Part shown: piece by piece, positions 599-21,078 of the stretch | Layout of the letters: each line of letters opens with the position of its first letter | Position numbering within the stretch: position 1 is the first letter of the stretch | Origin: a bacterium | GTDB lineage: Bacteria > Zhuqueibacterota > Zhuqueibacteria > Residuimicrobiales > Krinioviventaceae | Direction: 5' to 3' | Length of the DNA stretch: 21,078 nucleotides | Assembly: GCA_963674595.2 (NCBI GenBank) | Contig: CAXXFV010000030.1 | Span: forward strand, 1 to 21,078 | Notes under the pieces: model-generated | What the model was told of the DNA's origin: nothing | Databases searched by the model: none | Seen by the model: the letters and a program-made list of their open reading frames with translations, nothing else | Made by a program: the position numbers and the translations under genes

Positions 599-1105
599 TT
601 ATTTTTGATTCGATAGTTTTTTCAAAGCTTCCCATCTGGGATCAATTGTTTCTGTCTCGCAGTTACAGGTAACTTTGTTCAAATTTTCACCGCATTTCGA
701 ACAGAGTCCCTTACATTTCGGATGGCATATCTTTTTAACAGGTAATGATACCAAAATCGATTGCCGGATGGACTCGCTGATATCTATTTCTCCCCCGGGT
801 TGGCGGGAATAATAGACATCATCTTCATTGTCCTGGGCAAGTTCTGCATTTGATGTGATAACTATTCGCAGAGACTCTTTAAGTTCATATTCGAATGGTT
901 CCAAACAACGGTCACATTCCAGCTCTGCGATGGTAGAAATTATAGTTTTCAAATAGAGATCATTATCGACTTTATTTATTGTAAAATCAATAATAATCGG
1001 CTTACAAAACTTCCCATCATCGTGAAGGTCAATCTCATTTGGCATAATTGTTTTTGCAAAGTGGGATTGACCTTCTTTAAAATCACATATTTTCAGATTT
1101 AACAC
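599..1105 (-). CDS. yceD: YceD/DUF177 family metal-binding protein
   Basis: CDRCLEPF, LPVKKIC..CKGLCSKCGENLN...C.C and IDPRWEALKKL motifs; directly upstream of rpmF. Confidence 0.92.
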   Translation of the reverse strand: MLNLKICDFKEGQSHFAKTIMPNEIDLHDDGKFCKPIIIDFTINKVDNDLYLKTIISTIAELECDRCLEPFEYELKESLRIVITSNAELAQDNEDDVYYSRQPGGEIDISESIRQSILVSLPVKKICHPKCKGLCSKCGENLNKVTCNCETETIDPRWEALKKLSNQK

Positions 1106-1196: not shown

Positions 1197-1622
1197 CTAA
1201 TTTTTAATGCTGACAAGTTCTTTTTCGCTAAAGAAATAATATATTTCTTTTTTTGCATTTTCAGCGCTATCGGATCCGTGGACCATATTGTGCCGGGTAC
1301 TTTCCGCATATTCAAATCGAATGGTTCCGGGTTTAGCCTCTTCCGGATTCGTAGCTCCTATTAACTCGCGGTAATCATGAACAGCATTTTCTTTTTCTAA
1401 AACAGCAACAATACTGGGGCCTTTTGTCATAAAATTGATCAAAGCAGGGAAAAAGCTTTTATCTTTATGTACGGCATAAAAAGCCTCTGCTTCTTTTTTA
1501 TTTAACAAAAGCTTTTTCATGGCTATTATATTAAAGCCGGCTTCTTCAATCTTATTAATGATTCGTCCGGTTAATTTTTTTCTTATACAATCCGGTTTCA
1601 GTATCGCAAGCGTTCTTTCCAT
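1197..1622 (-). CDS. ndk: Nucleoside-diphosphate kinase
   Basis: MERTLAILKPD N-terminus, GATNPEEAKPGTIR, and catalytic HGSDS. Confidence 0.97.
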   Translation of the reverse strand: MERTLAILKPDCIRKKLTGRIINKIEEAGFNIIAMKKLLLNKKEAEAFYAVHKDKSFFPALINFMTKGPSIVAVLEKENAVHDYRELIGATNPEEAKPGTIRFEYAESTRHNMVHGSDSAENAKKEIYYFFSEKELVSIKN

Positions 1623-1675
1623 GAGTATCCCGAATTATTTTCATTAGAAAATTTAAGGAATGTACGAAATTATTT

Positions 1676-2227
1676 TCACAAATCATTCATTTTTTTTATT
1701 TCATCCAGTCCAACATGAAAAGCTTTAATATTTAATTCTTCGGTACCTTTAGGTACTCTGGCCTCGATAGCAGACAATAAAGCATCTATGGATACGATAT
1801 TTGACAAACCCGCTATTACTCCTAATGCTACAATATTTGCAACAAGCGCCCGGCCAACTTTTTCACGTGCCAACTTAATTACAGGAATTTTATAAACTTT
1901 AAATCCGCCGGCAGGGGGATTTGTAACAGCTTCTTCATCGATAATAACTAAACCATTTTCTTTTAAATCATTGATATATCGATCACAGGATTCCTGTGTC
2001 AATGCAAGCAAGAGATCGACATTCACAACTTTGGGATAATCAATGTCTTCATCAGAAATGATAACTTCTGACCGACTGGCACCACCGCGTGCTTCAGGAC
2101 CATAGGATTGACTTTGAGTAGCATTCAAATCATCATATATTGCCGCTGCTTCTGCTAAAATTTTACCGGCCAAAACCAAACCCTGCCCCCCTTCACCACT
2201 CAATCGGACTTCATAGCGAAAACTCAT
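1676..2227 (-). CDS. korC: 2-oxoacid:ferredoxin oxidoreductase gamma subunit (KorC-like)
   Basis: SGEGGQGLVLAGKILAEAA and SYGPEARGGASRSEV motifs; last gene of a delta-alpha-beta-gamma cluster. Confidence 0.9.
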   Translation of the reverse strand: MSFRYEVRLSGEGGQGLVLAGKILAEAAAIYDDLNATQSQSYGPEARGGASRSEVIISDEDIDYPKVVNVDLLLALTQESCDRYINDLKENGLVIIDEEAVTNPPAGGFKVYKIPVIKLAREKVGRALVANIVALGVIAGLSNIVSIDALLSAIEARVPKGTEELNIKAFHVGLDEIKKMNDL

Positions 2228-2230
2228 TTT

Positions 2231-3052
2231 TTAAATACTCCCTGTATTTTGAAAACGGTTAATTAATTTTTGATATTCTGCCCGGCATTCGGGTCGTTCT
2301 ATATCGACAAAAATACCGGTGACGACTTTGTCATTTAATTCATCCTGACTCATTTTTTGTGCACGCTGCACACTCACAGAATTCTCTTTCAACTCCTGCA
2401 GCATATCCACACCGGTCCCAATTCTATTTCGTCTTCCATAGGCCGTAGGACATGGAGACATGACCTCTACAATAGATAAACCTTTTTTTTCAATAGCCTG
2501 CTTTATAAATTTTTCAAGCTGGGTCGCATGATAAGCCGTGGTTCGCGCGACAAAGGTTGCTCCTGCGGCTTCGGCAAGACCGCTTATGTTAAAGGTATTT
2601 TCAAAACTTCCATAGGGGGCCGTGCTTGCCAATTTCCCGGATGGTGTTGTCGGTGAAACCTGGCCGCCCGTCATTCCATAAATATGATTATTAAATAAAA
2701 TCACTGTCAGATCAATGTTTCTTCTTGCTGCGTGGATGTAATGGTTTCCGCCGATAGATGTTGCATCGCCGTCACCTGTAATAACTATAATATGAAGGTC
2801 CGGCTTTGCCATTTTAATTCCTGTGGCAAAGGTGAGAGCCCGGCCATGCGTGGTGTGCAGGGTATTAAAATCCACATAACCAGGCAGACGACTGGAACAC
2901 CCTATTCCGGAAACCATACATATTTCGTCTTTAGATAAACCTGTTTTATGGATTGCCCTGATAAGTGATTTGAGCACAATACCATCCCCGCAGCCGGCAC
3001 ACCAAATTAACGGAAATTTATCTTTTCTGAGATAATCATCATAATTAAACAT
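2231..3052 (-). CDS. korB: 2-oxoacid:ferredoxin oxidoreductase beta subunit (TPP-binding, KorB-like)
   Basis: WCAGCG, SGIGCSSR, HTTHGRA, GDGD...NN.IYGMTGGQ TPP motif and SPCPT; overlaps the alpha gene by 8 nt. Confidence 0.92.
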   Translation of the reverse strand: MFNYDDYLRKDKFPLIWCAGCGDGIVLKSLIRAIHKTGLSKDEICMVSGIGCSSRLPGYVDFNTLHTTHGRALTFATGIKMAKPDLHIIVITGDGDATSIGGNHYIHAARRNIDLTVILFNNHIYGMTGGQVSPTTPSGKLASTAPYGSFENTFNISGLAEAAGATFVARTTAYHATQLEKFIKQAIEKKGLSIVEVMSPCPTAYGRRNRIGTGVDMLQELKENSVSVQRAQKMSQDELNDKVVTGIFVDIERPECRAEYQKLINRFQNTGSI

Positions 3053-4187
3053 TTTTTAATTCCTCAATTTTTTCACATATAGCCAGAGGATTTATAGGAT
3101 CGCCATCGATACGATTCAAACGATATACCGGCACTTTGCCTGCTGCCGCCCATTCAACTTCATGAGCAATCTGTCCCAGGTTCATTTCCACAACCAGCCA
3201 CTTTTTAACCTGGTTGGAATAATTTAAAATCTCTTTATCAGCAAAGGGCCATATCGTTTGAAGTCGCAGCATACCGGCCTTGATACCTTTTTCACGGGCA
3301 AGGCGGACAGCATGACGAGCAGACCTTGCCGAAGACCCATAGGACAATACTCCGATTTCAGCATCATCAAGCATATAGTTTTCCGTTAAAACAATATCAT
3401 CCCGGTTTTCTGAAATTTTATTTTCCAAACGGTTCATAAGTTTATTGATTTCCGTAACATTGTTTGTCGGGAAACCTGTTTCATCATGCGCAAGACCTGT
3501 GACATGGAAACGAAGACCTGATCCAAAATCAGCCATTGGTGGGACATGATTTTCAGTATGTTTATAGGGAAGGAAATCAGTTTCTGACTGATTTGGACGG
3601 GTTCGATCGATAATTTCAATATTTTCCAGCTTGGAAAAATCAATCTTTTCGCTAACATGCCCGATAATTTCATCCATTAAAAAGATGACGGGCGTTCTAT
3701 ATTTTTCAGATAAATTGAATGCTTTAATGATGAGGTCATAGGTTTCTCTAACACTGTTTGGTGACAGAGCAATTATTTGATGATCACCATGTGTTCCCCA
3801 TCTCGCCTGCATAACATCGCCCTGTGAAGGTAAAGTAGGCAAGCCGGTACTTGGACCGCCACGCATAACGTTTACGATCACAGTGGGAACCTCAGCCATG
3901 ATAGCATAGCCGATATTTTCCTGCATCAGAGAAAATCCGGGACCGCTTGTAGCTGTCATCGATTTGGTTCCGGTAAGTGACGCGCCGATAATGGCCCCCA
4001 TTGAAGATATCTCATCTTCCATTTGAATAAAAACGCCTCCGATTTTCGGCAGCATATAAGACAACACTTCTGCAATTTCAGAAGAAGGCGTTATGGGATA
4101 CCCTGCGTAAAATCGTAATCCGGCAGCTATGGCACCCTCCGCACAAGCCTCATTTCCGGTCATAATTTTTACATGATTTTTTTTCAT
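3045..4187 (-). CDS. korA: 2-oxoacid:ferredoxin oxidoreductase alpha subunit (KorA-like); start at ATG 4187 or GTG 4199
   Basis: TGNEACAEGA, GYPITPSSEI, QMEDE, TATSGPGFSLMQE, RGGPSTGLPT and VEMNLGQ motifs. Confidence 0.92.
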   Translation of the reverse strand: MKKNHVKIMTGNEACAEGAIAAGLRFYAGYPITPSSEIAEVLSYMLPKIGGVFIQMEDEISSMGAIIGASLTGTKSMTATSGPGFSLMQENIGYAIMAEVPTVIVNVMRGGPSTGLPTLPSQGDVMQARWGTHGDHQIIALSPNSVRETYDLIIKAFNLSEKYRTPVIFLMDEIIGHVSEKIDFSKLENIEIIDRTRPNQSETDFLPYKHTENHVPPMADFGSGLRFHVTGLAHDETGFPTNNVTEINKLMNRLENKISENRDDIVLTENYMLDDAEIGVLSYGSSARSARHAVRLAREKGIKAGMLRLQTIWPFADKEILNYSNQVKKWLVVEMNLGQIAHEVEWAAAGKVPVYRLNRIDGDPINPLAICEKIEELKNV

Positions 4188-4205
4188 AACAATAACCACA
4201 TTTAA

Positions 4206-4448
4206 TTATTGATCATTATCTTTTTTATCAGTTTTCCTGGAGCCCGCAACAGTGATGGCAAAATCCGGACACAAGAGTTCGCATAAACCACATACAGTGC
4301 ATGCTTCGATATCTGCAACTTTTGCCTTCCCCCCTTCCATTTTTAAAACATCTTTTGGGCAAAAATCAACACAGATAACACATCCCTTACACCACTCCTC
4401 ATTGATCTCTATTTTTATATTTTTTTTGTTTGAATTATAAACAGGCAT
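4206..4448 (-). CDS. korD: 2x[4Fe-4S] ferredoxin, oxidoreductase delta subunit (KorD-like)
   Basis: Two CxxCxxCxxxCP motifs (CKGCVICVDFCP and CTVCGLCELLCP). Start moved to ATG 4448 because GGAGG lies at 4458-4454. Confidence 0.9.
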   Translation of the reverse strand: MPVYNSNKKNIKIEINEEWCKGCVICVDFCPKDVLKMEGGKAKVADIEACTVCGLCELLCPDFAITVAGSRKTDKKDNDQ

Positions 4449-4465
4449 TGATGCCTCCAAAGATA

Positions 4466-5422
4466 TTATTTTATAATCTCTGTACCGGTTTTTCCAATTA
4501 TTGCGTGAGACATATTTTCTACCGAACTTATAACGGCCCTGTGGCCGCCATGTTCCAAAAAATGGATTGCCGCTTCAATTTTTGGTCCCATGTTGCCGGA
4601 AGGAAAATGTCCGTTTTGCAAATAGTCTTTAGCCTCATCAACTTTTAATACGTCCAGTTCTTGGTGCTTTGCCGTACCATAAAACAGACTAACCTTGTCA
4701 ACGGCTGTTAAAATAAAAAGTTCCTGTGCACCAATTTCATTTGCCAGGATAGCCGAAGCTCTGTCCTTATCAATAACGGCATCGACACCTTCCAAAGCTC
4801 CATTTTCGTCGATATAGACCGGGATACCTCCCCCGCCGGCGGCGATAACAATATGACCGGAATGAACAAGCTGTTTAATTGTTTCCGCTTCAACAATGGA
4901 TTTGGGCAAAGGGGAAGGTACAACGCGCCGATACCCTTTTCCTGAATCTTCTCTCATTATGTATCCACGTTTTTTTTCAAGTTCAGGCACATCCTTTTGT
5001 TGATAAAAAGGCCCGACAAATTTTTCCGGTTTGTGAATGGAAGGATCATTTTTATCAACAATGACCTGTGTTAATAACGTTACAACTTTACGGTTGATTC
5101 CACGAAGCTGCAGTTTATTTTGCAGAGACTGCTCAATCATGTACCCCATTCCACCTTCGAGGTCGGCAACAATAACTCCGAGAGGTATTGGGGGTACAAG
5201 CGTTCTTGTTTCTTCCACACGGATGAGCATGTGCCCAACCTGGGGACCGTTACCATGCGTAATGGCCATATGGTAACCTTTTTCAACCAAATCGGCAACA
5301 CCTAACAGGGCCCGGCGCGTGTTGGCAAATTGCTGATAAATATCACCTTCTTCAAATTCACGCGTAATGGCATTGCCCCCCAATGCCACCACAGCAGTTT
5401 TTATATTTTTTTGATCAGACAT
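4466..5422 (-). CDS. arcC: Carbamate kinase
   Basis: VVALGGNA, THGNGPQVG, GYRRVVPSP, GVDAVIDKD and GNMGPKIEAA motifs. The likely start is MSDQK at 5422, because the ORF-track start at 5497 overlaps the upstream gene. Confidence 0.95.
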   Translation of the reverse strand: MSDQKNIKTAVVALGGNAITREFEEGDIYQQFANTRRALLGVADLVEKGYHMAITHGNGPQVGHMLIRVEETRTLVPPIPLGVIVADLEGGMGYMIEQSLQNKLQLRGINRKVVTLLTQVIVDKNDPSIHKPEKFVGPFYQQKDVPELEKKRGYIMREDSGKGYRRVVPSPLPKSIVEAETIKQLVHSGHIVIAAGGGGIPVYIDENGALEGVDAVIDKDRASAILANEIGAQELFILTAVDKVSLFYGTAKHQELDVLKVDEAKDYLQNGHFPSGNMGPKIEAAIHFLEHGGHRAVISSVENMSHAIIGKTGTEIIK

Positions 5423-5432
5423 ATCCGGCAGC

Positions 5433-6743
5433 TTAAAAATCAGCCAAAGCATCAACCAAAGTCGGCTTGCCGATTTCCTGCAAATCATAAAAAACACGAA
5501 CAGCCGGTTTGTTTATTTTAATTATGCGCCGTAAATCAATCGGTGTGCCGATAATAACCGCATCACAATCACAACTGTTTATCGTCTTTTCAAGGTCTTT
5601 CATCTGTTCTTTTCCATAGCCCATGGCCGGCAGCAATTCACCTATTTCAGGATATTTTTCAAATGTACCTTTTAATGATCCTTTTAAAAACGGTCTGGGA
5701 TCGACAATTTCAGAAGCGCCAAACCGATCAGCAGCAACAATACCAGCGCCAAAGGTCATCTCACCATGAGTTAAAGTAGGGCCGTCTTCAACAACAAGGA
5801 CCCGTTTTCCTTTAATAATGTCCGGATCTTCTACATGAATGGGTGATGCCGCATCAATAATCTTTGCGCTGGGGTTAACGTGCCGGATATTATGGCGAAC
5901 CTGTTCAATATCATCCACTTCGGCTTCAATTTCTTTATTTATGATGACATAATCTGCCATACGAAGATTTGTTTCGCCCGGATAATATTGTATTTCATGG
6001 TTGGCGCGAAGCGGATCAACAACGACAATATGCAGGTCCGGTTTATAAAACGGCAGATCATTATTCCCGCCGTCCCAAAGTATGACGTCCGCTTCCTTTT
6101 CTGCCTGCTTTAAAATATCGCCATAATCCACACCGGCATAAACAATTGAGCCGCCGACAATGTGCGGTTCATATTCTTCCATTTCTTCAATGGTACAATT
6201 TTGGTCTTCCAAATCTTTAAGTGAAGCAAAACGCTGAACACGCTGGGCCACCAGGTCGCCATAGGGCATTGGATGTCTTATAACAACAATTTTTTTACCC
6301 TTGGATTTTAATATTTCTGCTACCCGTCTTGTGGTTTGACTTTTTCCGCAGCCGGTTCGAACCGCACACACGGCCACAACCGGTACATTTGCTTTAAGCA
6401 TGGTGTATTTGGGACCAAGCAATGTAAATGTAGCGCCAAGGGCATTAACCAATGCACCATTGTGCATGACGTATTCATGATCTACATCGCTATAGGAAAA
6501 AAAGACTTCATCTATATTATGTTGTTTAATTAATTGGGAAATATTTTCTTCAGAATCTATTGGAATTCCATCAGGATATAAAGGACCTGCAAGTGCAGCA
6601 GGATATTTTCTTCCTTCGATATTGGGGATTTGAGTTGCCGTAAATGAAACGATTTTATAATTCTGATTAGATCGGAAATAGGTATTAAAGTTATGAAAAT
6701 CTCTACCGGCTGCACCCATGATCAATGCTTTACGTGTGCTCAT
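5433..6743 (-). CDS. arcE: cDPGS-like P-loop NTPase (often labelled predicted GTPase); probable arginine synthetase, ArcE type
   Basis: GAAGRDFHNFN, FTATQIP, P-loop AVRTGCGKSQT, RHPMPYGDL, WDGGNND and VEDGPTLTHG match my recollection of the Thermococcus ArcE family. It ends 10 nt upstream of carbamate kinase. Start ATG 6743 follows GAGGT. Confidence 0.8.
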   Translation of the reverse strand: MSTRKALIMGAAGRDFHNFNTYFRSNQNYKIVSFTATQIPNIEGRKYPAALAGPLYPDGIPIDSEENISQLIKQHNIDEVFFSYSDVDHEYVMHNGALVNALGATFTLLGPKYTMLKANVPVVAVCAVRTGCGKSQTTRRVAEILKSKGKKIVVIRHPMPYGDLVAQRVQRFASLKDLEDQNCTIEEMEEYEPHIVGGSIVYAGVDYGDILKQAEKEADVILWDGGNNDLPFYKPDLHIVVVDPLRANHEIQYYPGETNLRMADYVIINKEIEAEVDDIEQVRHNIRHVNPSAKIIDAASPIHVEDPDIIKGKRVLVVEDGPTLTHGEMTFGAGIVAADRFGASEIVDPRPFLKGSLKGTFEKYPEIGELLPAMGYGKEQMKDLEKTINSCDCDAVIIGTPIDLRRIIKINKPAVRVFYDLQEIGKPTLVDALADF

Positions 6744-6768
6744 AAAAAACCTCATAATTTATTTTAAC

Positions 6769-6800
6769 AAAAAAAAAGAGGCCGTTGTTTATACTGCCTC
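6769..6800 (-). terminator. Probable intrinsic terminator overlapping the dusB stop codon
   Basis: Minus strand GAGGC-A-GT-ataaaca-AC-G-GCCTC followed by T9 (A-run at 6769-6777). The stem is short and imperfect. Confidence 0.55.
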
Positions 6801-7787
6801 ATTTAATTCTTGTTTATTTATATTTTCAGTTTCCAGTAAATTTTTGCATGTCAATAATTTTTCTTCAATTTCGCTATAATCATACGTTAGGAAAATCTGT
6901 CTTCGTAATTCGGTCGCATGTTCAAGTCCTTTAATATAGCAAGCCATGTGCTTTCGCATTATGTGTGAGGCTATTTTGTCTCCATAAAAATCACGGGCAT
7001 ATCTATAATGTTTAAGACAAACATCAATTTTTTCACCCGACGATACAGGTTCGGGAGGAATACCAAATTTTATAAAATCTTTAATTTGCCTGAAAATCCA
7101 CGGATTTCCCCTGGCTGCACGCCCAACCATAATTCCATCACAGCCGGTTTGTTCCAGCATTCGCAGTGCGTCCCCCGCATTTTTTATATCCCCGTTACCG
7201 ATGACCGGAACAGAAACGGATTTTTTTAATTTTTCAATAATGCTCCAGTCAGCTTCTCCTTTGAACTGCATTGACTGGGTACGGGGATGGATGGTTAAAA
7301 AAGAAACACCTGCATCGACTAAAACCTGGGCCGCCTCAACAGCAATATCGGAATTCCAGCCGCTGCGAATTTTTGCTGAAACAGGTATGTCTGTTTCATT
7401 TTTAATGGCACGAATAATTTCGGCCATATCATCCAAATTGCGCATCAGGGCAGAGCCGGCACCGCGCTTTATTATTTTCTTGGCAGGACACCCAAAATTT
7501 ACATCAATAAAATCAGGTTTATAATGGGAAATTTTTTGAATAGAAGAGGCAAAGGTCTCCGGTTCAGTACCAAATAATTGTAATCCTATTGGTCTTTCTG
7601 AATCCGAAAAAGAAATGAGTTGAAAAGTTTTTTCGTGGTCACGAATTAAACCGTCCACACTGGCCATTTCAGTTACAACTATATCCGCATCAAACTCTTT
7701 ACAAATCATTCGAAACGCCTGGTCCGTCCAACCGGCGAGCGGGGCCAATGCTACTGGTTTATCAATATGTATAGTTCCCAAATTCAC
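6789..7787 (-). CDS. dusB: tRNA-dihydrouridine synthase DusB
   Basis: LAPLAGWTD, GLQLFG, DVNFGCP (catalytic Cys), SAKIRSGW, IHPRT, VIGNGDI and GRAARGNPWIF motifs. Confidence 0.93.
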   Translation of the reverse strand: MNLGTIHIDKPVALAPLAGWTDQAFRMICKEFDADIVVTEMASVDGLIRDHEKTFQLISFSDSERPIGLQLFGTEPETFASSIQKISHYKPDFIDVNFGCPAKKIIKRGAGSALMRNLDDMAEIIRAIKNETDIPVSAKIRSGWNSDIAVEAAQVLVDAGVSFLTIHPRTQSMQFKGEADWSIIEKLKKSVSVPVIGNGDIKNAGDALRMLEQTGCDGIMVGRAARGNPWIFRQIKDFIKFGIPPEPVSSGEKIDVCLKHYRYARDFYGDKIASHIMRKHMACYIKGLEHATELRRQIFLTYDYSEIEEKLLTCKNLLETENINKQELNEAV

Positions 7788-7869: not shown

Positions 7870-10800
7870 TTAACGAATTAATACCATTTTGCCTGTTTTT
7901 TCATAATTATTAACTGTTAAACGATAAAAATACAAGCCGGAACTAACCTGAAAACCGGTTTGGTTCTTTCCGTCCCATATTGTATGATAAACACCTGCCT
8001 TTCTTTTGCTGTTCACCAACATTTTAACCTTTTGTCCCAATATATTATAGATGGTTAACCTGACATGCCCCGATTCTGGAAGATGGTACTCGATATTTGT
8101 CACCGGGTTAAATGGGTTGGGATAGTTTTGTTTTAAATCATAGGATAAGGGTATCATATCCTGTTCTGATTGGACTGATGTATTTACATCAAAACCGTGG
8201 CCGCCGCCATAGGCGCCCATATCGTTTCGCACAGTCCCCCGGCTTGGTAAAAGCGCCTGTCCGGGATTCAAAACATCTTCGGGATCATTAAAAGCCGGAT
8301 CAGGATTACCGCGATCGATACATGGCGAACCTGATGCCAGCCTGTAATCATATAGATCAGAATTTATAAATTGAGGATTAGCGACAATATTTGTCGATCT
8401 CCAGTGTATATTAACTTTAAAATAATTATTAGTATAATACCCCCTGTTCCAATAAGACATCGTCGTGTCGATATCACAGTAATCCAGATCAACATAACAA
8501 GTCGACAATCTATAATAAGAATATGTATAAAATTCTTTACCATATCTGGCCTGATTATGCCAGATAATACTGTTATTGATGAACAGGGAATCAATAGAAT
8601 TCAGGTAAAATGCGCCTGCATTTTGTTGTGCATGATTAGCCGAAATGGTCACATTAGAAAGAATGATTTTTTTATTTGAACCGGCACAATAAAAGGCGCC
8701 TCCTTCGTTTGAATTATTATTACATATCATTGTATTATTAAAAATTGGAGATGAATTTTTTAAATATATAGCACCTTTCGAATCAGCCAGATTTTCAAAA
8801 AAATAACTGTTGGAAATAACAGGAGTTGATCCAACAACAAATAAAGCACTGCCATTATAAGCGTTGTTATTTTGAATGGTTGAATGGTTTATATAAGGTG
8901 ATGATTTGGAAATATAAACACCGCCTCCGTAATATGCCCGGTTATCTGAAATTGTAACATAATCCATATAGGGTGACGACTCTGAAATAAACAGCCCTCC
9001 GCCTTTTGAGTCCGAATAGGTCTGACGATTTTTGCAGTCTCTGATCAGACAATGACGTAATGTATCATCATCCTGGGAGGAAATTATTTTAATTCCCCCC
9101 CAACCTTTACTCGTATCAATAGCCATAAAACAAACAGGATCATCTAATGTTCCATTTACCTGCAGCCCGGCATTTTCAGGAATTTGTAATGAGCTGTTTT
9201 CAAGAAACAATAGCTCTGTACCGGCTGTGATAGTCAATATTTCGGATGAAGGAACATAAATATTTCCGGAAACTATATAAGGTCCTCCCTCTTTCTGTAA
9301 AATACCGTTTATGGGTCCTTCGGTTATCGTGGAACCTTTGTGGACGTTTCCAATAATTTTTATAATTGTGTTTTGATCATCATTTGTTTGTACGAGTATA
9401 CTTTTACTGAAAGGTCCGCTCAATAGAGAATCGGCCTTCATTTTAAAATGCAGGGTATCTATATGTCCGGATGTAACTTTTAAGGGGTTCAGGTTGTTCA
9501 AACATTGCATATTTACACTATCGGATAAAAGCACCTGTTTTATGCCCAAATCAGCAACACAGCCGTTTTTTAAATACAGATCAAAATTAACATCAGTACC
9601 TGGCTGTAAATAGCCAAGATCAACAGGATTTGGCGCTATTGTTAAATGCACTCTGGAAGTTTGGGCCGCACTTTTCGTCCCGCCATAAGCTCCCTGGTTT
9701 ACACGATAACCATGTGGAAATAACTCATCCTTCATATCATCATTCGGATCACCAGCATCGATGCTCGGAGAGCCCACATCAAGATGTAAATCAGCATCGA
9801 CAAACATCGGGTCCTGACTGATATTACTTTCCTGCCAGTCATAGACATTTTCATTTTTCAAATTGAGCCAGGATGATCGCGTCGTATCAATATTAGAATA
9901 GGACATATCTATATAATCAGTCTTGTTCATATAACAAAAAGTATAATAGGTTGCAATATTGTGCCAAAAAATACAATTTTTCATCAACACCTTATTACCG
10001 CCTGCCAAGTCAAAGGAACTTCCCTTGATATAGGATGATTTATTAAATGCGCAAGTAACATTTGTTAATTCCAATGTCGAATTAACACTGCGAAATGCCG
10101 AACCTGTATTAGCATCATTATACATAACACTGCTATAATTCATTTTCAGGTGGCATTGTGAGAGATAAAAGGCACTTCCGGATGATAATGAATGATTATT
10201 TCTGAAACAACAATGTGAAATGGAAACAGATGCACTGTCTCCATAAAAACCGACACCATTTGTGTCATTTGTATTATTATAAATACAGGAATGAGACAGA
10301 GTAAGGTCAGAATTATCGGTTCTAACAGCACAGGCCGGAAAACTGTTAAAATATTCATCCGTAAAAGTACGGACGCCAAAAATATTACAAAAACCCAGGG
10401 TATCATCATCTTCGGAATGATTAAAATAAAGACCAAGCCACCCTTTTGAGGTATCAGCCGCGTAAAAATAGATACTGTCATTTTCAGTGCCCATTGCTTT
10501 CAGTTGAGCGCCTGTACCGATTGTTAAACGGTAAGGACCGTTGAATTTGACATGTACACCCGGTTCAATAACAAGCGACTTGTTTTCCTGTATATTGATA
10601 TTTCCCAAAACAGTATAAGGACTTGATTCTTTGGTCCAGACACCACTGACATTGCCCGCTTTTACAACAGAGTCTTCAACTCCTGTCCCTGTAACATGCA
10701 GCGTTTCAGAAGGACAATTGGAACAATGAAATACAACACTCGATATATTTTCATCATTTCCCTGTTGAGGATCGTATATGATCGAAAAACTGTCCACCAT

Positions 10801-13800
10801 GCCCGGTTGTAACACTGTTATATCATTAAATTGAGATATTTTAAAATCTGTTGTGTCTGTTAATACGATAGATGAAATGTTAATGGCCTCGTTACAGCCG
10901 TTTTTGCAATAAACGGTTTTACTGACCGGTTGCCCGATAGTAACCAATCCAAACGCCAGCTCAGAAGGTGCAACGGTCAGGAACACGCCTTCTGTTACAG
11001 CCGCTTTATCAGTTCCGCCCCAGGCGCCCATATTTCTGCGAAAACCGTGAGGAAAGGGTTCATTACCCAGCGGATCATTCGGATTAGCGGTATCAATACA
11101 CGGCGAACCGGTTTGAAGCAGGCCGTTACTGTCAGCAAAAAGCGGATCCCGGCATAAATTACCCGGTCCCCAGTGAAATCCGGAGTTTAATTCTTCTTTT
11201 ACTAATAATTGTTTCGACAGTGTATCAATATTCGAATAAGCTATATCAATAAAATAATCATCATAGGTATCTATAACAGCACCATCTGTAATTTCATTGT
11301 CCCATATAATTGAATTCCAGATATTTAGACAAGACATTTGATAAAGATATATTAATCTCGACGCCGTATTTTGTTTAACAGTGTTATTATTAAACGTTAC
11401 CTGACTGTTTGAATAAATATCAACTAAATGACTTGTTATATTATCGCAAAAAAGAGTTTGCTCTATAAGAGGATTTGAATTATATATTTCCAAGAGTCCA
11501 TTGTGAGTAGTATTATTTGAGAACCGGCAATTTGATAAAACCAAATTTGAAGAAGATAAATCCAATAAACTCGCATAACTTGTTACCGTATTATTTTCAA
11601 AGAAGGTATTCTGAAAAACAGTTGAAGAACCGACAAAACGGAATACCTCTCTATATCCAGAATGTGATACACTTGAAATGTTATTATTAAAAACATGACA
11701 ATAGGCAAGTGTATCATCATCTCCGGTACTATAAAAATAAAAACCGGACCAATATTCGGCATCTTCATCCATTGTTATTGAAATAGAATCATCCGGCAAT
11801 CCCATAGCAAGGAACTGGGCATCCGGATAAATCATAATTTGACAATCACCCATAACAATGATATCCACTCCCGGATGAATATTGAGCCGCTGACCGTCCG
11901 GGACAAAAATATCACCAAAAATACAATAGGGACTGTTTTCTTTGGTCCATTCACCATAGACTTGTCCGGCATTAATAACTGTTCCGATGGCGGGTCGAAC
12001 CCGTACCGGAACAGACTTGAATTTATCTTTATCATATTCTATATTAACCGTATCAGTAACAACTTTGGCTTGATCGCCGATGTAATTTATTTTTATTTGT
12101 AAAGAGTCTCCGGACATTAATGACACAGGCTCAAAAGCTGATTTTTCATTTTGAAAATTCAGGCTAAAATTTGTATTATTATTCAAATAAATATCATCAA
12201 CATCAATATTGTAAAGTGATCCATTTTTAAGCCAAATGGCTTTTTCGTGATGCTCTCCTATTTTTACAGGTCCAAAATCCACCATAACCGGTGCAACAGT
12301 CAGTTTTTTACGGGTTGTTTTTGCTGCTTCCGACGTACCGCCATAAAAGCCAAGGTTCCGACGGTAGCCATTTGGAAAAGGTTCGCCACCTACAGGATAT
12401 TCCGGATTTGCCGCATCAATACAGGGCGACAATTCACTCAAATGAAAGTCATAATTTTCAGCATCAACAAACATCGGATCAGAAGGTAAAATATAATCAC
12501 CAAGTAAAAAATTCTGTGGATACATTGGATTATCAGATACAAACTGCCAGTTTTCTTTGGTCGTATCAATACTACAAAAATTAATATAACAGGAAGATTC
12601 TCTGTGGACCTCTGAACTCAACTCATGACCAATGTTGGAATTACTTTTATTGTCCCAAAGAATTGAATTATTAACAACCAAATCAATTGCAAAAATAGAA
12701 CCAACTAAAGCAATTCCACCACCTTTATTGCCGGCAGAATTACGAACAATCGTTGAGTAATTAACAGACAGATTACCCTTTGTTAATCCAATAGCACCAC
12801 CGGTTTTATCCGCCCTATTGTATCCAATCAAGCAATTTTGTATGTTCAGTTGCGGGCCGGTAAATTGAATGCCGGCTCCGGTTGCAGCGGTATTGTTTAA
12901 TATTTTAGAGTTAAAAATATTAAAAACATAATCCGGATCGCTTGAAGACGAAGAAACAGAATATTGACAAACAGCACCGCCACTGGAATTGGCATGATTA
13001 TTTTGAAATAAACAATCCGTAATTATCGGAAATCCCTTGACAAAATAGGCAGCACCGCCATTATTTGCCTGGTTATATTCAAAAGTACAATAGCTTATAT
13101 TAGGAGAAGATATATTTGAATAGATAGCACCTCCTAATTCCGCTATATTATGCTCAAAAATACACTGTTCAATAAATGGAGAACTATTATCGGCATAAAT
13201 CACACCTCCCATTTTAGAACTTTCACCTGAATAGCTAAATTGACAATAAGACAATGTATCATCATGGTTGCTGTTGATGAGATCAATACCATTCCAAAAA
13301 ATACCTTCCTGGTCAGGTATAAACAAGACCGGTTCTTCTTCCGTGCCCTGAGCAATCAATTGAGCATACTCTCCGACAGTCAATTTATAATGATTAAAAA
13401 ATCGTACCTGTACGCCTTTCTTTATAATCAATGACTTTCCCTTTATTACCTGAATATCGCCGCCTATAAAATAGGGACTTTTATCCCTGGTCCAGACACC
13501 GTAAACATCGCCACCATAAATGACAGTGCCCTGTGTCGGCAAACCATATCCTTTTAGATTAAGCAACAAATAACGATGCACACCATTGGTTAAGGCCCTT
13601 ATCTGCAATGTCCCGCTATATTCCCGAAAAGTATCCGGCAGACAGGCAACATAAAACGTCCTGCTTTCATTTGGATTTATTGTATAAGGCCCGATTTCCG
13701 ATAAAAAATCTGCATTATCCTGGCTAATATAAAAATATTCTGAACAGGATAATTTTGATATTTCAATGGGTACTGTTCCATTGTTGGTTAAGGTAAAAGA

Positions 13801-15069
13801 TTCTGCCTCAGAAAGTGTGTTAACAACCGAACCGGGTAAAAAAAGACTGTTTTTATTCGTTTCCAGTTTGGTGTTATTATCCAGAGAGGGATAAATATTT
13901 AAAATGCCGTTATAAATTTTTTCAAAATCAGCAGGGATTTCTTGCGGGATGTGATACCACGCTTGTGTAATTTGGTCCGGGCTGCCGCTGCCCCAGCCAA
14001 AATTTAAATGAAAGAATTCATCTGTGTTATAACCATCCACAACAATGGCGTGACCTAATAGTGTTAACAAGGCCGGCTGCCCATTCATCATATTTTCTTT
14101 TAATTGATCATAAAATTGGAGCCAGGTTTCCAGATAATAATCTCCGGACTTGTACCCCAATTTATTTACAAGGGCATTGGGGACATTCTGAGGAAGGGCC
14201 GCAGAACTTTGCCCCAGATAATCCATCTTGATTAGTATACCACAAACAAAATTCAAGGCGGCTATTTCATCTTCACTGGGTGTAATATCACTTTCATACT
14301 TATTCTGCAACCGGGTTAAGAGGGTATTTAGAGTCCTGAAAGACGGAAAATCACAGCGGGTGCTGTCTAAATCAATAGTAATTCGACGAGTTTTCGTAGT
14401 ATAAATATCATCCAACGTTAGTTGTAGTGATCCGATAAACTGATGATAATTTACTATTTGCGCCAACGCCGTCGCCACACAACCGACCGGCGTGCGATTG
14501 TTTGTAGTTGTATCTATGGGACAGTATTTACGATATGGTATATTTTGGTTCCAGGTGGTCTCTACCCAGCCGCCTGTTATTGTGGTATTGGGATCGGGAA
14601 ACTGTTCAAATGTTGCTACATCATCCGTCGTTAATTTTTCTGAGGAGAGACGCATCCACATGGTTTGGTTCTTTTGCTTAACAGCATCTGATATTTGTTC
14701 TTTATGCTGATACAAATATCCTATATTTTTTCGTAAAAAGCTGTGAAACTGATTGGTGGAAACCGGATTCCATTTCTGAGTTAGAGAATAACATAACACC
14801 GGATAAAAATCCCTATCCGGCGAAAGGACAACAAAACCCTGGGGTGAAAGTTCAACAACATAACCCAGCAAAAGGTCTTTGTCTTTAAACTCTGAAATGC
14901 CGGATTGGCTAAAATTTTGTAAAGATAAATTTGATTTTGAAGAATTTGAATTAATGGAAATGAGAAAATTTTCAGCAACATGAGAGATTGGATTTTGTGG
15001 AGAAGTGAAAGAGTACAAGGAATGAACTTGAATGGTCAGATAAATAACTAAAAGCCAATTCTTTCTCAT
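7870..15069 (-). CDS. Secreted 2399-aa peptidase C10 (streptopain-like) with propeptide, four [Ig-like + right-handed beta-helix] modules and an FlgD-Ig/T9SS-type C-terminal domain
   Basis: Signal peptide; propeptide-like GFVVLSPD..YPVLCYS; WNQ..PY..YCP, VGCVATALAQI (Cys197), GHAIVVDGY (His340) and HLNFGWG; FxxN-x-GGA repeats; four SP(C/S)ID...NxGx(Y/W)GG endings; C-terminal LKQNYPNPFNP...SSGLYFYRL...KMVLIR. Confidence 0.88.
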   Translation of the reverse strand: MRKNWLLVIYLTIQVHSLYSFTSPQNPISHVAENFLISINSNSSKSNLSLQNFSQSGISEFKDKDLLLGYVVELSPQGFVVLSPDRDFYPVLCYSLTQKWNPVSTNQFHSFLRKNIGYLYQHKEQISDAVKQKNQTMWMRLSSEKLTTDDVATFEQFPDPNTTITGGWVETTWNQNIPYRKYCPIDTTTNNRTPVGCVATALAQIVNYHQFIGSLQLTLDDIYTTKTRRITIDLDSTRCDFPSFRTLNTLLTRLQNKYESDITPSEDEIAALNFVCGILIKMDYLGQSSAALPQNVPNALVNKLGYKSGDYYLETWLQFYDQLKENMMNGQPALLTLLGHAIVVDGYNTDEFFHLNFGWGSGSPDQITQAWYHIPQEIPADFEKIYNGILNIYPSLDNNTKLETNKNSLFLPGSVVNTLSEAESFTLTNNGTVPIEISKLSCSEYFYISQDNADFLSEIGPYTINPNESRTFYVACLPDTFREYSGTLQIRALTNGVHRYLLLNLKGYGLPTQGTVIYGGDVYGVWTRDKSPYFIGGDIQVIKGKSLIIKKGVQVRFFNHYKLTVGEYAQLIAQGTEEEPVLFIPDQEGIFWNGIDLINSNHDDTLSYCQFSYSGESSKMGGVIYADNSSPFIEQCIFEHNIAELGGAIYSNISSPNISYCTFEYNQANNGGAAYFVKGFPIITDCLFQNNHANSSGGAVCQYSVSSSSSDPDYVFNIFNSKILNNTAATGAGIQFTGPQLNIQNCLIGYNRADKTGGAIGLTKGNLSVNYSTIVRNSAGNKGGGIALVGSIFAIDLVVNNSILWDNKSNSNIGHELSSEVHRESSCYINFCSIDTTKENWQFVSDNPMYPQNFLLGDYILPSDPMFVDAENYDFHLSELSPCIDAANPEYPVGGEPFPNGYRRNLGFYGGTSEAAKTTRKKLTVAPVMVDFGPVKIGEHHEKAIWLKNGSLYNIDVDDIYLNNNTNFSLNFQNEKSAFEPVSLMSGDSLQIKINYIGDQAKVVTDTVNIEYDKDKFKSVPVRVRPAIGTVINAGQVYGEWTKENSPYCIFGDIFVPDGQRLNIHPGVDIIVMGDCQIMIYPDAQFLAMGLPDDSISITMDEDAEYWSGFYFYSTGDDDTLAYCHVFNNNISSVSHSGYREVFRFVGSSTVFQNTFFENNTVTSYASLLDLSSSNLVLSNCRFSNNTTHNGLLEIYNSNPLIEQTLFCDNITSHLVDIYSNSQVTFNNNTVKQNTASRLIYLYQMSCLNIWNSIIWDNEITDGAVIDTYDDYFIDIAYSNIDTLSKQLLVKEELNSGFHWGPGNLCRDPLFADSNGLLQTGSPCIDTANPNDPLGNEPFPHGFRRNMGAWGGTDKAAVTEGVFLTVAPSELAFGLVTIGQPVSKTVYCKNGCNEAINISSIVLTDTTDFKISQFNDITVLQPGMVDSFSIIYDPQQGNDENISSVVFHCSNCPSETLHVTGTGVEDSVVKAGNVSGVWTKESSPYTVLGNINIQENKSLVIEPGVHVKFNGPYRLTIGTGAQLKAMGTENDSIYFYAADTSKGWLGLYFNHSEDDDTLGFCNIFGVRTFTDEYFNSFPACAVRTDNSDLTLSHSCIYNNTNDTNGVGFYGDSASVSISHCCFRNNHSLSSGSAFYLSQCHLKMNYSSVMYNDANTGSAFRSVNSTLELTNVTCAFNKSSYIKGSSFDLAGGNKVLMKNCIFWHNIATYYTFCYMNKTDYIDMSYSNIDTTRSSWLNLKNENVYDWQESNISQDPMFVDADLHLDVGSPSIDAGDPNDDMKDELFPHGYRVNQGAYGGTKSAAQTSRVHLTIAPNPVDLGYLQPGTDVNFDLYLKNGCVADLGIKQVLLSDSVNMQCLNNLNPLKVTSGHIDTLHFKMKADSLLSGPFSKSILVQTNDDQNTIIKIIGNVHKGSTITEGPINGILQKEGGPYIVSGNIYVPSSEILTITAGTELLFLENSSLQIPENAGLQVNGTLDDPVCFMAIDTSKGWGGIKIISSQDDDTLRHCLIRDCKNRQTYSDSKGGGLFISESSPYMDYVTISDNRAYYGGGVYISKSSPYINHSTIQNNNAYNGSALFVVGSTPVISNSYFFENLADSKGAIYLKNSSPIFNNTMICNNNSNEGGAFYCAGSNKKIILSNVTISANHAQQNAGAFYLNSIDSLFINNSIIWHNQARYGKEFYTYSYYRLSTCYVDLDYCDIDTTMSYWNRGYYTNNYFKVNIHWRSTNIVANPQFINSDLYDYRLASGSPCIDRGNPDPAFNDPEDVLNPGQALLPSRGTVRNDMGAYGGGHGFDVNTSVQSEQDMIPLSYDLKQNYPNPFNPVTNIEYHLPESGHVRLTIYNILGQKVKMLVNSKRKAGVYHTIWDGKNQTGFQVSSGLYFYRLTVNNYEKTGKMVLIR
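8200..13870 (-). repeat. Four diverged intragenic modules of about 440-520 aa (approximate starts 13870, 12303, 10985, 9650)
   Basis: Recurring motifs in order: LT(V/I)AP...KNG (modules 2-4), GxWTKxxSPY, WxG...DDTLxxC, and DPxF...SPCID...EPFPxGxRxNxGxxGG. Similarity is clear at the protein level; boundaries are approximate. Confidence 0.8.
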
Positions 15070-15108
15070 AATGACCCCGCTTTTAAAAGCTTTATTTGAT
15101 ATTTATTA

Positions 15109-15137
15109 AAAATAAAAGGTCCCCCGCTAAAAGTCAA
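15109..15137 (-). promoter_or_regulatory. Sigma70-type promoter for the C10 protease gene
   Basis: TTGACT (15137-15132), 17 nt, TATTTT (15114-15109). A GCGGGGT ribosome-site-like motif precedes ATG 15069. Confidence 0.55.
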
Positions 15138-15145
15138 TTTATATT

Positions 15146-16598
15146 TTAATTATTTTTGTTATCAACATGTCTCAGTTTATTTTGAATTATTTTTTGTTCT
15201 TCCGCTTGTTTTAGAGCATACTTGAAATTGTCATTGTTAAATTGAAAATTATATTTTTTTAACAATTTTTCACGAACCTGATTTTTTATTTCCCTTTTCA
15301 ATTCTAAGAGACTCTTTTCTTAAAAAAACGGCTTTATTACCAGGATCAATGTCAGTAACATTTTTTATAGAGTCTATTTTGGTTTTTACAACAGAAGAAA
15401 CAGTATCGTTATAATATTTTGAACGTAATAAATGATCATTTAATTGTTGGATTTGTTCCATTACAACAGGGTGCCTGGATAATTCCGACGTTTTAGCATA
15501 ATTGGCAATCAATGTTCTTCGGGAATATTGGTCCAGTAATTTTCTCAAGTCTTTAACCGTTTCAGGTGTTTGTTTTCCTTCACGTAAAATATCAAACAAT
15601 GTAATAGAACCGCCTGAAAATACGGCAATTTTTTGCAACAAGTCTTTTTCCTGTAATTTGGACAAATCAATCATTGAAAACGGATGACCAGGCTTGCCGG
15701 ATGCTTTTTTAATGAGAGCGTCAAATTCTTTATCATCAACATGAAACTTGTAGAGGTCTGATAATTTTTCAAACAACTCTTGAACTTTATTATTGACCAG
15801 ATGTTGTCTGCTATGTTCCAAACCTTGCCGAATCCGGGGTGCTGCTTCATTAAAAGGTGGCCTTGCAACCTCACGTTTATCTTCTTTTAAAATAATATAA
15901 TACCCTTCATAACCGCGAACCGGTTCGGAAAACGCACCCATTTTCAGGGTATCCATTACGGCACGAAGCACACCATCGCCCAGGGATTCGCGGATAACCC
16001 AGCCCAAATCGCCTCCCTTAGCGCTTGTGGTAACGTCCTGAGAATATTTTTTTGCTGCTTCCTGAAAATCTTTTCCTTTTTTTAACAACTGATATATATA
16101 TTGAATAGAATCTTTTTGTGCTTGCTCCAATTCCAAAGTTGATGCTGTTAAAACCGGACGAATAATATACCGCATTCTATATTGCGGAGAAAATTCGTTA
16201 TAATATTTTTGTATGAGGCTATCGGTTACTATAGAATCAACAATTACTTTTCTTACAAAAATTTTATAAAGTATTTTCTGCTCATTGACATTCAAAAGCT
16301 TTTGTATATTTGCAGCCGTGTCAATTTTACCTTCAAGCGCTTCAAAAACAGCTATTTTTTCAAATGCCTTTTCTTTGACAACTTCTGTTAAATTTTCTCT
16401 TGTCGGCATTTGATCCGGTTTATATTGTGTACTGAGAAGATAGTGGTCAAGGTAGTCCTGGACAGTTATCTGACCATTATTAAAAGTTGCCAAAGTCTGT
16501 TTATTGCTTTTTTGACAAAAAACAAGCAGCAACATTACGATTAAAATGAAAGGAATAATCCGTATACCGTTTTTTGCATTATCAAAATTCCTAAACAT
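15146..16598 (-). CDS. PrsA/SurA-like parvulin (PpiC-type) chaperone, probable lipoprotein. As read it stops at 15270; an apparent extra base near 15293 hides a C-terminus ending at 15146
   Basis: Hydrophobic leader ending LVFC; GKDFQEAAKKYSQD..SAKGGDLGW...FSEPVRGYEGYYII parvulin core. The alternative frame continues EIKNQVREKLLKKYNFQFNNDNF...NKNN*. Confidence 0.8.
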
Positions 16599-19735: not shown

Positions 19736-21078
19736 TTATTGACTGACCCATTGAGGGTCAACAGTTGGTGTTATTGCTCTGCCTGTAAAGCTTTTCCGAA
19801 GGAAAAAAGAAATCTGTTGAGATTTCGGCGAGACATCCAGTTGAATTGTATCCAGTACTGCGGTGTTAATCCAAATTTTATATCCGGCTTTTAATTTTTC
19901 AATTTCGGCTTCCAGTTTTTGTCTCTGTTTTTCATGGACCAAAGCTGTATAAACTTCATCTTTATATTTATAAAAACGGGTTGTATCCACATCTGCAATG
20001 TCAAGTTCACGCCATCTGTTTTTAAAATAATCTTTCATTTCTTCATCAGTTACATCAATACCGTCAAGCAGGTCTAATCGATAGGCATTATAGGTCCATT
20101 TTTTTCTCCCAAACGCGTAAATCTTCTTGCACCTGAAAAGAATCTGCAAAACCTTCTTTTTCGGAAACGGAGATAAAAACATCATTTTTTACCATAGTGC
20201 CGATTTCCGTTATTAATCTGCTTTTAAAATCAGGATATGATTGGCTCTGTTTCAGGTTTTTGCGGTAATAATTCATATAATTCAAAAAGTCCTGTACAGT
20301 TTTATTGCCATTATTCATGGTAACAAGCGTCTTTTTTGAAAGTTTATGAATCACTTTAAGATAATCCTTGGAAGTATCTGCTACACTTTTTACCGTGGCG
20401 CTTAAAGATGTTGCGGGTAAACCATCCTGAATCCATTGAAAAAGCGCCGGAGCTAATTCTTCGACAATTTCACCTTTAACACGCACGTTCATAGGTGTTA
20501 TCAATGAATCCATAAGCTGATGCACAATCTCATCTGCCTTAATATTATGAAGACGTTTCTGAATTTTTTTTCGCTGTACACCAAATTTTAATTCATCTTG
20601 TGTTATACCTTTCATTTGAAGACCCAAAATTTGAACAATTGCCCACCCATCTCCCCATGGTATGGGTTCCGATGGACGATGCAATTCCAGGTCTTGAATG
20701 AGTGCAAAAGTTTCAGTCGGCATACCTAAATAATCGACCCAGTCTGTTTCATAAAAACTTTTTTGCTCTAAAGGTATTTCCTTTCTTTTTAATTGGTTTT
20801 CAACATAATCATTCAAATCTGTTTTACTTGCTTCCTGAAATGCCTTTTTGGCCCCATCCAATGTGGGCATGGGCCAAATAAGCATTCGGAACTTGACGGT
20901 TGCTTTTTTAGTAGCTTCCTGAATTTCTTGTTCAGGAATATCAACTTTATTATGAACGTGCGTTATATAAAACGATTCCAGCAAATTGTTATATAACTTT
21001 TGACTCATACGACTTTTAACATAATAACTTTTGTTATATCCTTGTTTAAATCCTTCAGCAGCAAGAACAAGTTCGTTG
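19736..21078 (-). CDS. SurA/parvulin-like chaperone, 5'-truncated by the window edge and split by a single-base frameshift at about 20099-20105 (joins ORFs 20088..21008 and 19736..20185)
   Basis: The frame is open from the window edge (NELVLAAEGFKQGYNKSYYVKSRMSQ...). It contains KVDIPEQEIQE, a degenerate parvulin segment (PSEPIPWGDGWAIVQI), then IDVTDEEMKDYF and LKAGYKIWINTAVL. Removing one A from the A7 run gives a continuous VWEKKWTYNAYR. Confidence 0.7.

Follow-up and report, generated by a model that had tools for sequence, protein, structure and literature searches.

To our knowledge, the sole description of arginine synthetase (ArcE) dates from 2024 and concerns a single archaeon. In Thermococcus kodakarensis this enzyme (TK2200) forms a pathway with ArcB (ornithine carbamoyltransferase, OTC) and ArcC (carbamate kinase), and the report on it (Michimori et al. 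2024, PMC11032458) places arcE throughout the Thermococcales and describes widespread bacterial homologues, including those of Caldithrix and Bacteroidota, some of which adjoin arcB or arcC. In the arcABC(D) deiminase pathway, too, arginine ends up as ornithine, CO2 and two NH3, and carbamate kinase is likewise the last enzyme; unlike that pathway, ArcE in place of ArcA would give a second ATP. Here we analyzed a predicted bacterial arcE that opens a row of seven genes, arcE-arcC-korDABC-ndk, at positions 1197-6743 of a contig of 21,078 nt (C30; the whole contig is called the window below) in a 6.6-Mb, 37-contig genome. An initial annotation of this DNA had read the row as a single operon carrying arginine through ornithine to succinyl-CoA. 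The reading that we favor, with reasonable though by no means complete confidence, is that known energy-yielding modules and ndk stand together in an inherited block, probably co-transcribed and sharing a theme of energy harvest, rather than forming a dedicated arginine-to-succinyl-CoA pathway.

The locus resembles the T. kodakarensis system (PMC11032458) in the enzyme family, in the pairing with carbamate kinase, in the lack of an arginine deiminase (ADI) and in an OTC gene unlinked to arcE, as TK0871 is to TK2200. Unlike T. kodakarensis, the host is a bacterium (the proteins closest to its own bear the names KSB1 or Calditrichota) that also carries argG, argH and carB, and the arrangement, known here from sequence, has arcE and arcC contiguous and followed by korDABC and ndk. 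In the arcE-arcB-arcC clusters found elsewhere (see below) arcE is orthologous to the gene described here (51-56% identity) and arcC is adjacent, as in this row; on the other hand, those clusters contain OTC and no ndk, whereas the block type described here has ndk and no OTC. The OTC gene is unclustered also by comparison with arcABC(D). The features of the row and its borders are as follows.

6789..7787, minus strand: dusB, tRNA dihydrouridine synthase (TIGR00737, 342 bits, cut-off 293), unrelated in function
6756..6800, minus strand: weak hairpin, GAGGC...GCCUC and then nine U, at the dusB stop and before arcE
5433..6743, minus strand: arcE, arginine synthetase family, 436 aa, P-loop motif TGCGKS
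4466..5422, minus strand: arcC, carbamate kinase, 318 aa, TIGR00746 at full length (365 bits, cut-off 358.25) and PF00696
4206..4448, minus strand: korD, 2x[4Fe-4S] delta subunit, 80 aa, Fer4 families
3045..4187, minus strand: korA, alpha subunit, 380 aa, POR_N and PFOR_II, generic alpha model NF006412 (589 bits, cut-off 411)
2231..3052, minus strand: korB, thiamine pyrophosphate (TPP)-binding beta subunit, 273 aa, TPP_enzyme_C, 8-nt overlap with korA
1676..2227, minus strand: korC, gamma subunit, 183 aa, PF01558 (POR)
1197..1622, minus strand: ndk, nucleoside diphosphate kinase, 141 aa, NF001908 (193 bits, cut-off 155)
1158-1130, minus strand: promoter-like site after ndk, TTGACT-17-TAAATT, 9/12 match
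599..1105, minus strand: yceD (DUF177, PF02620), conserved neighbor downstream
3-323, after yceD: plsX (PF02504)

The minus strand thus carries nine consecutive genes (dusB, arcE, arcC, korD, korA, korB, korC, ndk and yceD). The seven co-oriented genes of the row and the gaps between them (10, 17, 18, -8, 3 and 53 nt) were reproduced exactly as first annotated, and the identification of the second gene as carbamate kinase and of the seventh as Ndk agrees with family matches above their cut-offs. At the borders the spacing is 45 nt between dusB and arcE and 91 nt between ndk and yceD. Shine-Dalgarno-like GAGG or GGAGG motifs precede arcE, korD, korB and korC. Judging from this layout, the seven genes are probably transcribed together.

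The protein of the first gene (gene 1) matched no Pfam family. A search for its family among 1.84 billion representatives returned 3,779 matches at E <= 0.001, of which 664 were at E <= 1e-30. We then considered 41 archaeal genomes of the class that holds a named Methanofastidiosia metagenome-assembled genome locus (L144); going by the GTDB taxonomy, we take this class to be Thermococci, to which the Thermococcales belong. A strong ArcE match is present in 39 of the 41, as a single full-length copy at 51-65% identity in 38 of them and split over two contigs in one, and many of these 39 consist of a single contig of 1.7-2.2 Mb. In nine archaeal genomes, seven of them single-contig, the sole strong homologue is 61-65% identical to gene 1 and falls into one tree clade; in two further genomes of the presumed Thermococci the identity is 51-52%. 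Two of the archaeal-class genomes also encode a true cyclic 2,3-diphosphoglycerate synthetase (cDPGS), scoring 607 and 637 bits to PDB 9sxb. In the genome with the 637-bit cDPGS (G194) gene 1 aligns with the ArcE-type protein without gaps over 432 aa (581 bits, 63% identity), as opposed to 46.6 bits and 27% identity over 171 residues for the cDPGS. The two genes of this archaeon lie on the same strand about 530 nt apart (L157, 6059-9339). A FastTree tree of 154 rows (152 ArcE-type proteins and the two cDPGS) set both cDPGS apart by a branch of 2.9+2.9 with a support of 100, the 152 ArcE-type rows being tight, and placed gene 1 in a 73-row clade that also takes in some OTC-linked genes. Gene 1 does not, therefore, group with cDPGS, and the initial description of its product as arginine synthetase-like is borne out. 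These comparisons support gene 1 as an ArcE-type arginine synthetase, not a cDPGS, with the predicted reaction Arg + ADP + Pi <-> Cit + NH3 + ATP, whose direction is argued from gene content below.

The functional context of the family was assessed in 80 named diverse loci whose arcE orthologues are 47-68% identical to gene 1, using a scan built from a ten-row alignment. A same-strand OTC gene stands beside the orthologue (51-56% identity) in 10 of the 80, in eight of them together with carbamate kinase; these OTC-linked loci include Acidobacteriota, Bacteroidota, Aminicenantes, Desulfobacteraceae and Eubacteriales. Carbamate kinase accompanies the orthologue in 19 of the 80.

The four genes between arcC and ndk had been annotated as a four-subunit 2-oxoacid:ferredoxin oxidoreductase (OFOR), and this also holds: delta, alpha, beta and gamma domain types fall on the four consecutive genes korDABC, in the same gene order as in the 2-ketoglutarate (KG):ferredoxin oxidoreductase (KGOR) of Thermococcales and in OorDABC (PDB 8ys5, 1yd7, 6n2n), and the best matches are of the KOR/Oor type. 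Thus, korA scores 414 bits to the alpha subunit of a Pyrococcus 2-keto acid:ferredoxin oxidoreductase (1yd7) and 301 bits to that of 2-oxoglutarate synthase (8ys5_A), and korB scores 294 bits to 2-oxoglutarate synthase (8ys5_C). The korC product reaches 221.6 bits with NF006323 (cut-off 235), and the best NCBIfam matches of korD, OorD and OGOR delta, are both under their cut-offs. Unlike KGOR and OorDABC, the korDABC genes stay under the KG-specific cut-offs and are placed between arcC and ndk, and sucCD lies on another contig. In relatives, kor orthologues adjoin sucCD in 9/60 flanks of arcE within the phylum, in 11/20 of the Ignavibacteria and in 1/80 of the diverse loci. Since the KG-specific models are under cut-off, it is mainly this adjacency that suggests a preference of KOR for 2-oxoglutarate. 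The best match to the E1 component of 2-oxoglutarate dehydrogenase (OGDH) in the genome has 38 bits (cut-off 770). KOR is the only 2-oxoglutarate oxidoreductase of the genome and hence would have a general role.

To place the row in its evolutionary context, ArcE was traced through the genomes of the window's phylum, where it is present in 137 out of 151 (a tally that includes two unpublished genomes, G144 with a match and G088 without), and in 38/41 genomes of WOR-3, 35/41 of Fidelibacterota and 40/41 of Ignavibacteria. Flanks of arcE were surveyed for 60 in-phylum loci (counting genes on the arcE strand), for 20 loci each of the class Ignavibacteria, of Fidelibacterota and of WOR-3, and for the 80 diverse named loci; there are 211 flanks in all (L011-L070, L074-L153, L154-L165 and L171-L230). 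In the phylum itself and in the three other groups the block recurs module by module, with the general form dusB-arcE-arcC-[sucCD]-[korDABC]-ndk-[hbd-ackA]-yceD. Among the 60 in-phylum flanks we found arcC in 46, ndk (downstream of arcE) in 42, dusB (upstream of arcE) in 31, yceD (downstream) in 27, kor in 25, sucCD in 20 and ackA in six. The corresponding counts out of 20 are 18 for arcC, 13 for ndk, 16 for sucCD and 11 for korA in Ignavibacteria; 11 for arcC, 13 for ndk, six for sucCD and eight for dusB (upstream of arcE) in Fidelibacterota; and 10 for arcC, nine for ndk and eight for ackA in WOR-3. The fullest form, dusB-arcE-arcC-sucC-sucD-korDABC-ndk-hbd-ackA, was seen at locus L048, and the taxonomic order of the window mostly has the window's own form, without sucCD.

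Both arcC and korA accompany arcE in 22 of the 60 in-phylum flanks and in 11 of the 20 of Ignavibacteria, while kor occurs without arcC in three in-phylum flanks and arcC without kor in 24. In Ignavibacteria a gene for a CCA-adding tRNA nucleotidyltransferase (cca) stands between arcC and sucC (L105, 11219-12667; L211-L229). Four genomes without an ArcE match (the genome G088 of the tally above is not among them) retain sucCD-ndk-yceD, two of them with arcC as well. In those two (G104, L168, and G058, L170) carbamate kinase directly precedes sucCD-ndk-yceD, with no ArcE match to this query; upstream of carbamate kinase, G104 has a phosphofructokinase gene instead. Different neighbors surround the genes in a WOR-3 row (L109), methyltransferase-arcE-arcC-ndk-hbd-ackA, and in that of L107, metK-ahcY-arcE-arcC-ndk-ackA. 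The latter continues after ackA with a pair of genes resembling NfnAB or sulfide dehydrogenase (a DHODB Fe-S binding domain and a GltD-like Pyr_redox_2; 13088-15408). OTC was found in none of the 60 in-phylum flanks and in none of the 20 each of WOR-3, Fidelibacterota and Ignavibacteria, and an OTC gene hidden in the block was rejected on these flanks. Overall, arcE clusters are of two exclusive types, with OTC or with ndk, the two occurring together in 0/211 flanks.

The genome of the window contains one arcE and one arcC. A single OTC gene above cut-off lies on contig C8, behind lptB-rpoN-hslVU and unlinked to the row. The best match to ADI (TIGR01078) in this genome has 42.4 bits against a cut-off of 489.1, and a deiminase pathway was rejected for lack of arcA. 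Also above cut-offs are argG, in two full-length copies (C6:360430 and C23:868127), argH and carB. Contig C6 carries sucCD near two glutamate dehydrogenase (GDH) genes, out of three in the genome, and near argG-argH; the same region (C6:345000-364500, L073) holds genes for creatininase-like and M16-like peptidase proteins. A rocD-type ornithine aminotransferase is encoded on C20 (553.8 bits, cut-off 378), and a candidate for 1-pyrroline-5-carboxylate (P5C) dehydrogenase scores below cut-off. The arginine synthetase pathway is thus complete in the genome, and the parts for the conversion of ornithine to succinate are present but scattered. With OTC present and ADI lacking, a route from arginine to ornithine that would yield two ATP, as the initial annotation had it, is feasible. 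Parts for its continuation over glutamate and 2-oxoglutarate to succinate likewise exist elsewhere in the genome, the P5C dehydrogenase candidate being below cut-off.

According to the reading that we favor, ArcE would convert arginine, ADP and Pi to citrulline, NH3 and ATP; the unlinked OTC would split citrulline with Pi into ornithine and carbamoyl phosphate, from which carbamate kinase would form a second ATP. KorDABC would oxidize 2-oxoglutarate and pass succinyl-CoA to SucCD, whose genes have moved to C6 in this genome, and Ndk would spread the NTP formed and regenerate ADP. A flux from ornithine to 2-oxoglutarate may connect the two halves. The adjacency of the genes, for its part, would go back to an ancestral block of FCB-type phyla. 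Plain inheritance is suggested by unrelated housekeeping genes in the block (dusB, cca, yceD and plsX), by modules that come and go separately, by the position outside the block of the enzymes that would link the steps of the proposed pathway and by the general role of KOR. Some selection is suggested, on the other hand, by the fact that the metabolic members all yield or balance nucleoside triphosphates (NTP), namely ArcE, carbamate kinase, succinyl-CoA synthetase with KOR, acetate kinase and Ndk, the NTP-forming steps belonging to the fermentation of amino acids or organic acids, and by the trio arcE-arcC-ndk being kept with differing flanks across lineages.

Several observations weigh against this reading. 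The link from gene 1 to TK2200 runs through archaeal genomes whose assignment to Thermococci is inferred. Promoter-like matches are not enriched in the window (32, with shuffles giving 23.2 +/- 5.1), and terminator-like sites are no commoner than by chance (7 versus 6.4 +/- 3.2). The six sequencing runs listed as holding this DNA come from three studies, and none of them is an RNA run. All three KG-specific models remain under their cut-offs, with 437 versus 579 bits for korA (NF007206), 339 versus 364 bits, just under, for korB (NF007207) and 54 versus 93 bits for korD (NF007205). Finally, arcE-arcC-ndk is kept in spite of the different flanks in WOR-3 and L107, which hints at selection for at least the trio, beyond pure inheritance.

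The same reservations touch the limits of the transcription unit. The terminator-like hairpin reported upstream of the row is present and straddles the dusB stop, but it is weak (-8.6 kcal/mol, z -2.4; 4 of 200 shuffles fold equally well), and it is missed by the consensus terminator scan owing to a loop of more than 8 nt. The new promoter proposed after ndk can likewise be located, but such matches occur at shuffle frequency. With a weak hairpin, and with promoter and terminator matches no more frequent than in shuffles, the operon limits are plausible, not demonstrated. Inside the row the consensus scan gave weak terminator-like sites at 4084-4067 and at 4456-4443, both on the gene strand, and the spacer between korC and ndk folds no better than its shuffles (z -0.74).

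The persistence of the trio invites a stronger interpretation, which we regard as possible but put forward only tentatively. The block might be an ancient "substrate-level-phosphorylation island" of FCB-type phyla, in which as many as four enzymes that form NTP would be under common control with Ndk, around a core of arcE-arcC-ndk; the four would be ArcE, carbamate kinase, acetate kinase and a succinyl-CoA synthetase supplied by KOR. By analogy with the archaeal enzyme, whose dependence on ADP is reported to be sigmoidal (PMC11032458), Ndk may be a true partner of ArcE.

Somewhat less likely still is the interpretation of the initial annotation, in which the row is one dedicated operon leading from arginine over ornithine, glutamate and 2-oxoglutarate to succinyl-CoA and reduced ferredoxin, with Ndk balancing the nucleotides. 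The single strand and the tight spacing of 10-53 nt are in its favor, as are the further parts in the genome (the rocD-type aminotransferase, three GDH genes and sucCD), the co-occurrence of arcC and korA in relatives and the fullest form at L048, which adds sucCD and hbd-ackA. However, the enzymes that would connect the two halves (OTC, ornithine aminotransferase, P5C dehydrogenase and GDH) are outside the block, as tested for OTC in the 60 in-phylum flanks, and in the genome itself they are on other contigs. The modules are also separable, as seen from kor without arcC, from arcC without kor, and from the ArcE-negative genomes that keep sucCD-ndk-yceD or even arcC. In fact, the tRNA enzyme gene dusB is linked to arcE (31/60) as tightly as kor is (25/60), another tRNA enzyme gene splits arcC from sucC in Ignavibacteria, and KOR, as the only 2-oxoglutarate oxidoreductase of the genome, would have a general role. 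The linkage of arcE, arcC and kor is conserved in relatives, as the initial annotation had proposed to survey, but it is modular, spans phyla and carries housekeeping genes; arcE, arcC, sucCD and kor are lost independently, and the linkage gives no support to the notion of a dedicated pathway.

The opposite, biosynthetic direction appears improbable. In that case ArcE would make arginine, or ArcE and carbamate kinase would supply carbamoyl phosphate, and KOR would act as a reductive 2-oxoglutarate synthase for glutamate. ArcE is indeed reversible, T. kodakarensis can make arginine from citrulline with arcE alone (PMC11032458), and the pathway supplies carbamoyl phosphate in that archaeon (PMC13260591); moreover, an anaerobe without OGDH may run KOR either way. 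But with argG (in two copies), argH and carB above their cut-offs, ArcE would be needed neither for arginine nor for carbamoyl phosphate, and PMC11032458 makes the case for a catabolic ArcE in organisms that have argG and argH. The neighbors in relatives, SucCD and acetate kinase, are ATP-yielding too. The catabolic direction is more likely on these grounds.

The least tenable alternative, that gene 1 encodes a cDPGS or a GTPase, can be practically dismissed: its relatives do carry the source names "GTPase" or "cyclic 2,3-diphosphoglycerate synthase", and among solved structures cDPGS is its top match in both sequence and fold, but the match is partial (28-31 bits over 110-150 residues for solved cDPGS as a whole, and for 9sxb 31 bits over about 110 residues, against 607-637 bits for true cDPGS), two archaeal genomes contain both a true cDPGS and an ArcE-type gene, separated by the long branch of the tree, and gene 1 orthologues cluster with OTC and carbamate kinase. 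The AlphaFold2 model of gene 1 (pLDDT 93.4) ranked in Foldseek with cDPGS 8oru, then 8ork, and then LpxK 4ehy (E 6e-9), the cDPGS fold match having 15% identity and a TM score of 0.48. The cDPGS (8oru and 8ork from Methanothermus fervidus, and 9sxb) and the gene 1 protein have the P-loop NTPase fold in common and differ in sequence and in clade, being paralogues where both occur. PMC11032458 also calls the resemblance of ArcE to cDPGS weak, and LpxK 4EHY is the structure superimposed there on TK2200p.

Elsewhere in the window, a gene on the minus strand (7870-15069) encodes a 2,399-aa secreted protein that begins with a Spi-inhibitor-like propeptide and has a Peptidase C10 domain; long stretches of repeats, Ig-like and beta-helix-like, come next, and a type IX secretion system (T9SS) sorting domain forms the C terminus. 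This protein fits a protein-degrading lifestyle. In a second long protein (16675-19587, minus strand, 970 aa) Pfam recognizes nothing beyond FlgD_ig and a T9SS sorting tail. The open reading frames 19736-20185 and 20088-21008 matched no Pfam family, and a search of the window matched no Rfam family.

ArcE itself, the arcE-arcC pair and the broad occurrence of the enzyme in bacteria have already been published (PMC11032458). The remark of the initial annotation that this gene combination is not known to have been described stands in part: arcE beside arcC is known, but we found no paper joining arcE to kor, sucCD or ndk, with the proviso that the supplementary figures of PMC11032458 may show some such cases, and a literature search for arginine synthetase together with a ferredoxin oxidoreductase returned only papers on T. 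kodakarensis. As it stands, the locus does not reveal a new pathway. What it does provide is a correction of annotation, since bacterial ArcE copies are still labeled "GTPase" or "cDPG synthase" in databases. Among uncultured, protein-degrading bacteria ArcE is near-universal in four groups, usually along with carbamate kinase, and the result raises the ATP yield per arginine that models of these bacteria assume. That ndk, sucCD, kor and ackA keep recurring beside it poses the question of a co-regulated ATP-harvest regulon. If the block does prove to be a substrate-level-phosphorylation island, Ndk would drain ATP into the other NTP pools and return ADP for ArcE, and would thereby be functionally tied to the arginine synthetase pathway as a partner, and the OTC-linked and ndk-linked clusters would be alternative organizations of one pathway.

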